Source: Escherichia coli | Lineage (GTDB): Bacteria; Pseudomonadota; Gammaproteobacteria; Enterobacterales; Enterobacteriaceae | Assembly: GCF_003790525.1 (NCBI RefSeq) | Contig: NZ_CP033635.1 | DNA length: 64,000 nucleotides | Reading direction: 5' to 3' (one strand) | In this document: piece after piece, positions 1 to 569 of the stretch | Numbering within the stretch: the stretch's first letter is position 1 | Layout of the letters: every line of letters begins with the position of its first letter | Program-made: the position numbers and the translations under genes | Notes under the pieces: generated by a model | What the model saw: only the letters and a program-made list of their open reading frames with translations | The model's database searches: none | What the model was told of the DNA's origin: nothing

Positions 1-434
1 CCTCGTATGACGAACTCAGTACCATGCTCGACCAGCGACAGCAAACCCTGCTATTGCCAGAGAGCGCCGCCGACATCACCGTTCAGGGTGATGCAACCCT
101 GCTGCGGATGTTATTGCGAAACCTGGTAGAAAACGCCCATCGTTACAGCCCGCAAGGCAGCAACATTATGATTAAGCTGCAAGAAGATGGCGGAGCAGTC
201 ATGGCCGTTGAAGATGAAGGACCGGGTATTGATGAGAGTAAATGCGGGGAGTTGAGTAAAGCGTTTGTACGTATGGACAGCCGTTATGGCGGGATTGGTC
301 TGGGGTTAAGTATTGTCAGCCGCATTACACAGTTGCATCACGGGCAGTTTTTCCTGCAAAACCGGCAAGAGACTTCCGGCACGCGGGCCTGGGTACGGCT
401 GAAGAAAGATCAGTACGTGGTAAACCAGATATAA
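1..434 (+). CDS. basS: Sensor histidine kinase BasS/PmrB, C-terminal fragment (5' end lies outside window)
   Basis: ORF track 24..434, open in frame to window start; HATPase_c-type motifs ([25 protein letters not shown]); convergent with proP and overlapped by pmrR as in E. coli. Confidence 0.8.
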
Positions 435-499
435 AGAAAGCTGCTGACCACCAGCACGCTGAACACGGTAGTTAAACTTTCATAAACACGGTTTTTCAT
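410..499 (-). CDS. pmrR: Small membrane peptide PmrR (29 aa)
   Basis: Read by eye: ATG..TGA ORF translating [29 protein letters not shown] with GGAGGAGAG RBS just upstream; overlaps basS 3' end on the opposite strand; coordinates +/- 1-2 nt. Confidence 0.55.
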
Positions 500-569
500 T
501 GCACTCTCCTCCGTTAACCTGGAGGAGAGTATGCGCGTCAGAGATTAAGTGAACCTTAAGAGTTCAATT

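Follow-up and report, generated by a model that had tools for sequence, protein, structure and literature searches.

The minus-strand open reading frame at positions 410-499, near the start of the 64,000-nucleotide stretch of Escherichia coli DNA that we analysed (hereafter the window), is very probably pmrR, a gene that PmrA (BasR) activates and whose product is a peptide of 29 residues that crosses the inner membrane once. The gene is already known from RefSeq, from EcoCyc and the K-12 annotation, from UniProt and NCBIfam and from the experimental literature, and as gene discovery its presence here brings nothing new.

The pmrR frame, its identity and its neighbours

The genes and gene-proximal signals at this end of the window are as follows.

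3-434, plus strand: 3' part of basS (pmrB), the sensor kinase gene, truncated by the window start
410-499, minus strand: pmrR coding sequence, ATG at 499-497 and TGA at 412-410, 29 codons plus the TGA
504-512, minus strand: Shine-Dalgarno sequence GGAGGAGAG, core GGAGG at 512-508, 8 nt before the ATG; it doubles as the downstream arm of the leader hairpin
569-599, no strand assigned: REP-like imperfect palindrome TGGCCTGATAAGAC / GTCACATCAGGCCA, right after the proP stop codon
611-2113, minus strand: proP, the osmolyte:H+ symporter gene, co-directional with pmrR and upstream of it; its transcript enters the pmrR leader

Translation of 410-499 gives the same 29 residues that an earlier note on this DNA had reported, and its coordinates and frame also hold. 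Small size alone is unremarkable here, as the first 3 kb contain 43 ORFs that reach 20 aa or more. Across the whole window 478 ORFs that start with ATG are 20-50 aa long; GGAGG lies 4-16 nt upstream of only five of them, and among those five pmrR alone encodes a strongly hydrophobic peptide, with a best Kyte-Doolittle mean over 19 residues of 1.81 (0.94 or less for the others). The strong ribosome binding site and the single hydrophobic helix that the same note had described are thus both borne out, the latter as one hydrophobic segment at residues 9-29 (mean hydropathy +1.54) that follows a polar stretch at residues 1-8 (mean -1.43). PmrR is expected to combine, within about 29 aa, an N-terminus that is short and polar with a single hydrophobic transmembrane segment.

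The NCBIfam equivalog model for PmrR, NF033224, matches the peptide over profile positions 1-29 of 29 with 73.9 bits (E = 6.4e-21), well past its cut-off of 30, and a Pfam search with the peptide gave no significant match. A 241-nt query around the ORF finds a counterpart at 90% identity or better in 5408 of 5426 complete E. coli genomes, and under the match every record listed, with the weakest matches sampled too, carries the PGAP/RefSeq annotation "pmrR: LpxT activity modulator PmrR". The exact peptide is present on at least 1000 contigs as "LpxT activity modulator PmrR [Escherichia coli]", and its K-12 MG1655 counterpart is b4703 at 4332116-4332205. The earlier note, which had matched the peptide to PmrR, was therefore right about the name; its expectation that ORF callers would easily miss the gene fails, since the RefSeq pipeline calls it. 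The location is also that of PmrR, as the gene is convergent with the pmrB 3' end of the eptA-pmrA-pmrB operon.

PmrR of E. coli K-12 (b4703, PMRR_ECOLI) has the same position between proP and basS and the same promoter box, hairpin, Shine-Dalgarno sequence and 25-nt overlap. There are five mismatches between K-12 and the window in 601 nt around pmrR, one of which, at 421, gives T27 in the window peptide in place of A27 and also alters the fourth-from-last residue of BasS (V here, A in K-12). The Salmonella enterica PmrR, likewise 29 aa long, is identical to the window peptide at 19 of 29 residues and scores 65.2 bits against NF033224; its gene too lies between proP and pmrB, with the same distance from box to ATG and the same hairpin over the Shine-Dalgarno sequence.

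For a comparison across species we fetched loci by means of a PmrB C-terminus anchor, so that conservation of pmrR itself was not selected for. A 29-codon frame of the same length and with the same start is present in 24 of 24 cases (the window itself and 23 species of Escherichia and Citrobacter), without interruption in any of them; two Siccibacter species in the PmrB-anchored set lack pmrR and have a different gene after pmrB. Among the 24, variable columns fall 15, 5 and 24 at codon positions 1, 2 and 3, and single-nucleotide codon differences number 1704 synonymous versus 861 nonsynonymous. Since the substitutions follow a coding pattern and the frame and its start are kept, it is these comparative data, rather than ORF size, that constitute the main evidence for a real gene. 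The Shine-Dalgarno sequence is invariant in the 24 species, and M1, K2, E7, T10, S14, S19, S20, F21, Y23, W25 and Y29 are invariant in 17 distinct PmrR peptides.

The tail-to-tail antisense overlap of pmrR with basS, put at about 25 nt in the earlier note, is exactly 25 nt in the window (410-434). That compact arrangement turns out to be confined to Escherichia: the two coding sequences overlap by 4-7 nt in Citrobacter and are separated by an 8-nt gap in a Salmonella-like contig. The longer overlap exists because Escherichia PmrB carries six extra C-terminal residues (YV[VAT]NQI). A 1,085-nt metagenome contig (L085), in which the pmrR frame diverges after codon 26, was considered as a case of frame decay and set aside; the contig switches to other sequence at window position 419, and it is a rearrangement or an assembly chimera rather than a decayed frame. 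Its raw translations beyond the switch suggest an unrelated, efeU/efeO-like region.

Promoter, product and function

Three further features of the minus strand bear on how pmrR is expressed and on what its locus has been called.

403-568, minus strand: match to Rfam RF02052 "STnc630", 183.4 bits over model positions 1-166 of 166 (gathering threshold 55)
528-533, minus strand: putative -10-like hexamer CATACT, with 10 nt between it and the PmrA box upstream
544-560, minus strand: PmrA/BasR box CTTAAG-GTTCA-CTTAAT, the sole match to the pattern in the 64-kb window

All 24 species have the box without any change. An 8.2-kb E. coli locus contains exactly two PmrA boxes, at the pmrR and eptA promoters, and these two promoters share a geometry in which 10 nt separate the box from a hexamer whose second base is A and whose sixth is T. 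In the pmrR hexamer the A at position 2 and the ACT at positions 4-6 are invariant in the 24 species; one Salmonella-like leader (L041) among the 37 distinct leaders described below has G at position 4 and keeps A2 and T6. The 10-nt spacer between box and hexamer varies across species. A scan of 300-800 for the sigma-70 consensus found no promoter, as expected for an activator-dependent promoter that lacks a -35 element; the pmra-box replaces that element and lies at about -21 to -37 in pbgP (PMC10570014). Promoter geometry by itself predicts a PmrA-dependent +1 for pmrR at about 523-519. The published delta-pmrRprom allele of the PmrA-box promoter (PMC8129183) corresponds to window 544-565; it removes the box and 5 further nt and leaves the -10 hexamer, hairpin, Shine-Dalgarno sequence and ORF untouched. 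It is the unique and invariant predicted box, together with this published deletion, that marks the promoter as PmrA-dependent.

In a PmrA-constitutive E. coli the delta-pmrRprom deletion makes cells polymyxin-sensitive and deoxycholate-resistant, and polymyxin resistance is regained with delta-lpxT or with ectopic pmrR (PMC8129183). Translation at the predicted start, which the earlier note had made a point to check, is evident in published work: Ribo-RET reads at the pmrR start rise 5-fold in low Mg2+, and changing the ATG to TAA abolishes complementation from a plasmid (PMC11429745). The same paper found PmrR-6xHis in the membrane fraction and relates an earlier genomic epitope tagging of pmrR. 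LpxT is the undecaprenyl-pyrophosphate:lipid A 1-phosphate phosphotransferase, which adds a second phosphate at lipid A position 1 (PMC8129183, PMC8004244). Binding of PmrR to LpxT was shown biochemically in Salmonella by Kato et al. (2012), as that work is cited in these two papers and in PMC11429745, and a negative feedback on PmrB that results from less Fe3+ binding is described for Salmonella. As we read these reports, the LpxT link in E. coli is one of genetic epistasis, with direct binding reported for Salmonella only.

In the pathway that these studies support, phosphorylated PmrA binds the box at 544-560, which stands in for a -35 element, and the pmrR mRNA is translated from the ATG at 499 by means of the GGAGG sequence, the peptide associating with the membrane. 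There, as the E. coli genetics and the Salmonella work together indicate, PmrR would bind and inhibit LpxT, which would leave lipid A position 1 free for EptA to add phosphoethanolamine. The lower negative surface charge would then raise resistance to polymyxin, lower resistance to the bile salt deoxycholate and reduce the amount of Fe3+ bound, and the reduced Fe3+ binding would feed back negatively on PmrB. Published work already describes how pmrR balances resistance to polymyxin with resistance to bile salts. Other observations in PMC11429745 are that a transcriptional reporter of the region directly upstream of E. coli pmrR gave no significant response to low Mg2+, that GFP-PmrR was not membrane-localised, and that the growth defects caused by delta-pmrR (in low Mg2+) or by PmrR overproduction were independent of LpxT. 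Since these last E. coli phenotypes are LpxT-independent, PmrR may have additional partners beyond LpxT. PmrR is like MgrB and MgtS in being a single-pass inner-membrane peptide of fewer than 50 aa that is induced by PhoP or PmrA and modulates a membrane protein in an envelope feedback (PMC11429745); unlike PmrR, whose target is LpxT, they act on PhoQ and MgtA, and they have no sequence relationship to it.

Rfam classes the same DNA differently, as the non-coding sRNA STnc630 on the strength of Hfq co-immunoprecipitation reads, and a full-length match at 183 bits might be taken to mean that the locus encodes an Hfq-binding RNA whose ORF is incidental or secondarily translated (a dual-function RNA). 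STnc630 was defined in the Salmonella proP/basS spacer, where the PMC2515195 supplement gives 27 Hfq co-IP reads versus 1 in the control; the same supplement has no Northern signal for this unvalidated sRNA candidate, the entry being "nd". Against a non-coding identity, the RF02052 consensus spans the PmrA box and promoter DNA, the hairpin, the Shine-Dalgarno sequence, the ATG and the whole ORF through its stop codon, the substitutions track codon positions with synonymous changes in excess, and Ribo-RET, epitope tagging and start-codon mutants point to the protein as the active product. At 403-568 the coding substitutions, the ORF within the model and the Northern entry are thus not those of a non-coding sRNA, and we consider this interpretation of the locus very improbable. 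The Rfam "sRNA" STnc630 is the pmrR mRNA locus, and some of the model covers promoter DNA that is not transcribed, or proP 3' UTR; an extra role of the pmrR transcript at the RNA level, for example as an antisense to basS, may exist. As a small hydrophobic ORF that overlaps an antisense transcript, pmrR also resembles the loci of type I toxins; growth is delayed when PmrR is overproduced (PMC11429745), and the peptide has a weak match to entericidin B (E = 0.052). That match reaches 13 bits against a cut-off of 94, Pfam returns nothing significant, and there is thus no match to a known toxin family above its cut-off. The gene moreover occupies one conserved chromosomal position beside pmrCAB and has a PmrA box, and its deletion phenotype is a loss of function that is rescued by the protein. 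That the ORF arose by chance, or encodes a toxin-like peptide with no part in the control of lipid A, is refuted by the published genetics and the coding substitution pattern, and we give either idea hardly any credence.

The promoter coordinates may also bear on a colistin result. Xu et al. (2021) found that pmrB(BL21) makes cells resistant to colistin only in constructs that extend into the DNA downstream of it: 86 bp gave no resistance, 103 bp partial resistance and 126 bp or more full resistance; pmrB mRNA levels also changed in their constructs, and they merely speculated on pmrR (PMC8004244). The basS-proP spacer in the window, 435-610, is 176 nt long, in agreement with their numbering. 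On the window their +86 construct ends at 520 (in the hairpin loop, at the predicted +1), the +103 construct at 537 (just past the -10 hexamer) and the +126 construct at 560 (the outer edge of the PmrA box). This coincidence of end points suggests that the unexplained "3' UTR" effect on colistin resistance may involve pmrR or its promoter. The TOP10 host of those experiments, as a K-12 derivative, presumably keeps its chromosomal pmrR, and this weakens such an explanation.

PmrR-like peptides in other Enterobacterales

A metagenome scan anchored only on the PmrA box and ATGAAA added leaders from Salmonella, more Citrobacter and Erwinia-type genomes to the set. Behind a PmrA box, Erwinia persicina has a 32-aa peptide annotated as "hypothetical protein" that scores 15.8 bits against NF033224, and Pantoea agglomerans has a 39-aa "hypothetical protein" that NF033224 does not match. 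At three loci (L034, L077 and L114) the 32- or 39-aa peptide genes are convergent to pmrB-pmrA-eptA; a fourth contig (L120) ends too soon after its peptide gene to show this context.

Another small peptide gene behind a PmrA box lies between crcB and cspE-pagP and encodes the 28 residues MKENLLGVGMVLLSVAIVASFLKIYLIG. Aligned by eye without gaps, it is identical to PmrR at 9 of 28 positions, including S14, V15, V18, S20, F21, L22 and I24. The protein collection gives this peptide no name, and three NCBI genomes are without a gene call at its position.

Transcript ends and the leader hairpin

The 3' termini given here come from the K-12 maps in the supplements of PMC10687069 and were transferred to window coordinates.

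310-409, minus strand: 3' UTR of the pmrR mRNA, antisense to basS, from the primary 3' end at K-12 4332305 (window 310; PMC10687069)
489-503, minus strand: cluster of 3' termini (K-12 4332112-4332126), with peaks at 4332117/8, which is window 498/497 (PMC10687069)
503-530, minus strand: inverted repeat ACUCUCCUCC / GGAGGAGAGU, a perfect 10 bp with an 8-nt loop and arms at 530-521 and 512-503

The primary 3' end (PMC10687069) makes the pmrR 3' UTR 101 nt long. With that end at window 310, the pmrR mRNA as mapped there overlaps at least 125 nt of the basS coding sequence in antisense. The published ends imply that the overlap of the two transcripts fits a convergent excludon, and pmrR-basS is entered as one in the ExcludonFinder listing (PMC12288877). 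The local fold at the 3' end at 310 is no better than that of shuffled sequences (z = -0.44). A terminator-like site within the pmrR coding sequence at 456-432 (UGCUGGUGGUCAGCA followed by a U-rich tail), the only such site that the scan reported, was not counted as a feature. Its stem also appears in the Rfam consensus structure; by manual reading of the aligned sequences it is broken in one Citrobacter species, and among the ends listed in the supplementary tables used from PMC10687069 none lies at this site.

The hairpin at 503-530 is built from the translation and promoter signals themselves, its downstream arm being the Shine-Dalgarno sequence and its upstream arm joining the final 3 nt of the -10 hexamer to the 7-nt discriminator. 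As RNA its local fold is about -19 kcal/mol, the leader has z = -3.9 relative to shuffles, and the hairpin is also part of the RF02052 consensus structure. Both arms are invariant in the 24 species save for C-to-U changes, and the 7-8-nt loop is hypervariable. Across 37 distinct leaders 99.2% of the hairpin cells are paired. At two pairs both bases have been replaced (A-U by G-C, C-G by A-U), a result matched in only 6 of 500 shuffles; because the arms are almost invariant, the covariation support for the hairpin is modest, amounting to two pairs and three cells. All nine of nine one-sided changes are C to U, which gives a U.G pair in the RNA of pmrR/proP sense and an A.C mismatch in the RNA of basS sense. 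In Salmonella and Salmonella-like leaders the outermost pair differs from that of the window, being A.C in L127, whose peptide is exactly the Salmonella PmrR, and G-C in L041.

Hairpins of this kind also occur with other sequences. At the crcB-adjacent peptide gene a 12-bp hairpin with unrelated arm sequences covers the Shine-Dalgarno sequence at the same position, and an Erwinia hairpin again has different arms. Strong hairpins are found where a co-directional gene lies upstream, namely proP, or crcB at the paralogous locus. In Pantoea the upstream gene is divergent and the hairpin absent; in Erwinia persicina the hairpin is present though the upstream neighbour looks divergent.

With a +1 predicted at 523-519, 7 or more of the 10 nt of the upstream arm would be missing from a PmrA-driven mRNA, and the full hairpin would form only in RNA begun upstream of about 531, that is, in proP read-through RNA or the proP 3' UTR. 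In a ViennaRNA ensemble calculation the probability that the Shine-Dalgarno sequence is unpaired is 0.00 in read-through RNA versus 0.2-0.3 in the predicted PmrA transcript. In proP read-through RNA the hairpin would mark the 3' end and occlude the Shine-Dalgarno sequence, leaving pmrR untranslated, and transcripts initiated at the PmrA promoter, without the anti-Shine-Dalgarno arm, would be translatable. We therefore offer, as a tentative proposal that we think somewhat more apt to be wrong than right, that translation of pmrR may be set by the promoter from which its RNA originates, the PmrA mRNA being open and the proP read-through RNA locked by a hairpin that also fixes the proP 3' end, and that this design may recur downstream of crcB. 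The modest covariation, the lack of a U-tract and the hairpin of Erwinia persicina, where the upstream neighbour looks divergent, count against this proposal.

The same hairpin might instead be nothing other than a 3'-end structure that terminates transcription or blocks exonucleases, serving the proP mRNA or the convergent basS mRNA and leaving the translation of pmrR unaffected; its sharing of sequence with the pmrR Shine-Dalgarno sequence and -10 hexamer would then simply save space. The 498/497 peaks sit directly after the stem, 5-6 nt past its base; PMC10687069 assigns this terminus to the transcript of the upstream gene, and SEnd-seq is said to place the end of that gene's transcription within pmrR. 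The strength of the hairpins where the upstream gene is co-directional, and their absence in Pantoea, would also be as such a function predicts. No U-tract follows the hairpin on either strand, however, so that it is not a canonical intrinsic terminator, and the Shine-Dalgarno sequence itself is the downstream arm in every clade that has the hairpin, even where the arm sequences differ. The Erwinia persicina hairpin, with no obvious co-directional gene upstream, also argues against an exclusive 3'-end function, and a basS terminator in particular is disfavoured by the one-sided changes, which keep pairing only in RNA of pmrR/proP sense. We regard a purely 3'-end structure as conceivable, at rather less than an even chance. 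The two roles are not mutually exclusive, and 3'-end formation and occlusion of the Shine-Dalgarno sequence may coexist.

For annotation of the polymyxin-resistance circuitry of Enterobacterales it is relevant that NF033224 misses the positional orthologues in Erwinia and Pantoea, as is the PmrA-box peptide beside pagP. If control of pmrR translation by promoter of origin is correct, inhibition of LpxT would stay strictly under PmrA control despite heavy transcription from upstream, where proP is osmotically induced, and a hairpin placed inside the promoter suggests a simple read-through shield for a small regulator gene that lies in its neighbour's 3' UTR.

Hairpin and promoter in the pmrR leader

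The leader of pmrR carries a conserved hairpin that sequesters the SD and whose upstream arm overlaps the promoter of the gene (window positions):

503-530, minus strand: conserved 10-bp SD-sequestering hairpin of the pmrR leader
528-533, minus strand: -10-like hexamer
544-560, minus strand: PmrA box of pmrR

Across the 37 leaders compared, pairing in the hairpin amounts to 99.2%; two pairs have changed in a compensatory way, and nine changes are C->U, each of which yields U.G. The upstream arm of the hairpin occupies the same bases as the -10 and the discriminator from which PmrA-dependent transcription would start; because they coincide, the arm would be missing from the PmrA-driven mRNA, and the hairpin should be present only in RNA that reads through from proP, the co-directional gene upstream.

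The same promoter parts, which lie in the basS-proP spacer (435-610), are met by the endpoints used in a colistin-resistance study of pmrB (basS) with varying lengths of downstream DNA (PMC8004244). The +86 construct, which ends at position 520 in the hairpin loop and at the predicted +1, gave no colistin resistance; the +103 construct, ending at 537 just beyond the -10, gave partial resistance; and the +126 construct, ending at 560, where the PmrA box has its outer boundary, gave full resistance (PMC8004244). Since these endpoints fall on parts of the pmrR promoter, the "3' UTR" effect on colistin resistance in that study may be a pmrR-promoter effect. A caveat to this reading is that the host of the constructs presumably retains a chromosomal pmrR.

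The pmrR-basS junction and local elements

The 25-nt overlap of pmrR with basS (410-434) is specific to Escherichia among the loci compared (L002-L024 and L041), because Escherichia PmrB has a six-residue C-terminal extension, YV[VAT]NQI. In Citrobacter the overlap is 4-7 nt, and in the Salmonella-like contig L041 an 8-nt gap separates the genes. A single SNP relative to K-12, at position 421, is nonsynonymous in both frames: PmrR has T27 where K-12 has A27, and BasS carries V instead of the K-12 A at its fourth residue from the C-terminal end. In a 1,085-nt metagenome contig (L085) the pmrR copy is identical through codon 26 and the sequence switches at position 419 to an unrelated efeU/efeO-like region; L085 is either a basS-removing rearrangement or an assembly chimera.

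Three further elements lie here:

403-568, minus strand: match to Rfam RF02052 "STnc630" (type sRNA)
432-456, minus strand: terminator-like stem with U-rich tail, within the pmrR coding sequence
569-599: REP-like imperfect palindrome directly after the proP stop codon and upstream of the PmrA box (14-nt arms, 86% complementarity)

RF02052 is the protein-coding pmrR locus: its consensus begins 8 nt ahead of the PmrA box and extends through the stop codon of pmrR. The first STnc630 candidate was recovered as Hfq co-IP reads and gave no Northern signal (PMC2515195). The Rfam consensus structure also takes in the 432-456 stem, which is kept in some, not all, Citrobacter species and matched none of the published 3' ends listed.

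Related peptides behind PmrA-type boxes

Short peptide genes occur in similar settings elsewhere:

L150, L123, L062, L087, L144 and other loci: unannotated 28-codon ORF, MKENLLGVGMVLLSVAIVASFLKIYLIG, downstream of crcB and adjoining cspE-pagP
L153-L155, 2332-2550: region of this ORF in the cspE-crcB gap
L114 (6640-6797) and L120, Erwinia persicina-type: 32-aa peptide behind a PmrA box
L034, L077 and relatives, Pantoea agglomerans: 39-aa peptide behind a PmrA box

The crcB-adjacent ORF has the same distance from PmrA-type box to ATG as pmrR and likewise an SD-sequestering hairpin, although here of 12 bp with different arm sequences; its peptide shares 9/28 ungapped identities with PmrR. The 28-codon length is preserved in the divergent relative L144. 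The protein collection searched gives this peptide no name, and no gene is called at the ORF in the three genomes checked (CP126746.1, CP066108.1 and CP083234.1).

The Erwinia and Pantoea peptides are annotated as "hypothetical protein"; against NF033224, the NCBIfam PmrR model, the 32-aa peptide scores 15.8 bits, below the cut-off, and the 39-aa peptide falls outside the model. Pantoea leaders lack a strong SD hairpin, and the gene upstream of the peptide there is divergent. In L034, L077 and L114 the peptide genes are convergent to pmrB-pmrA-eptA (the L120 contig ends just past its peptide gene). The Erwinia persicina-type 32-aa and Pantoea 39-aa peptides are positional orthologues of PmrR.
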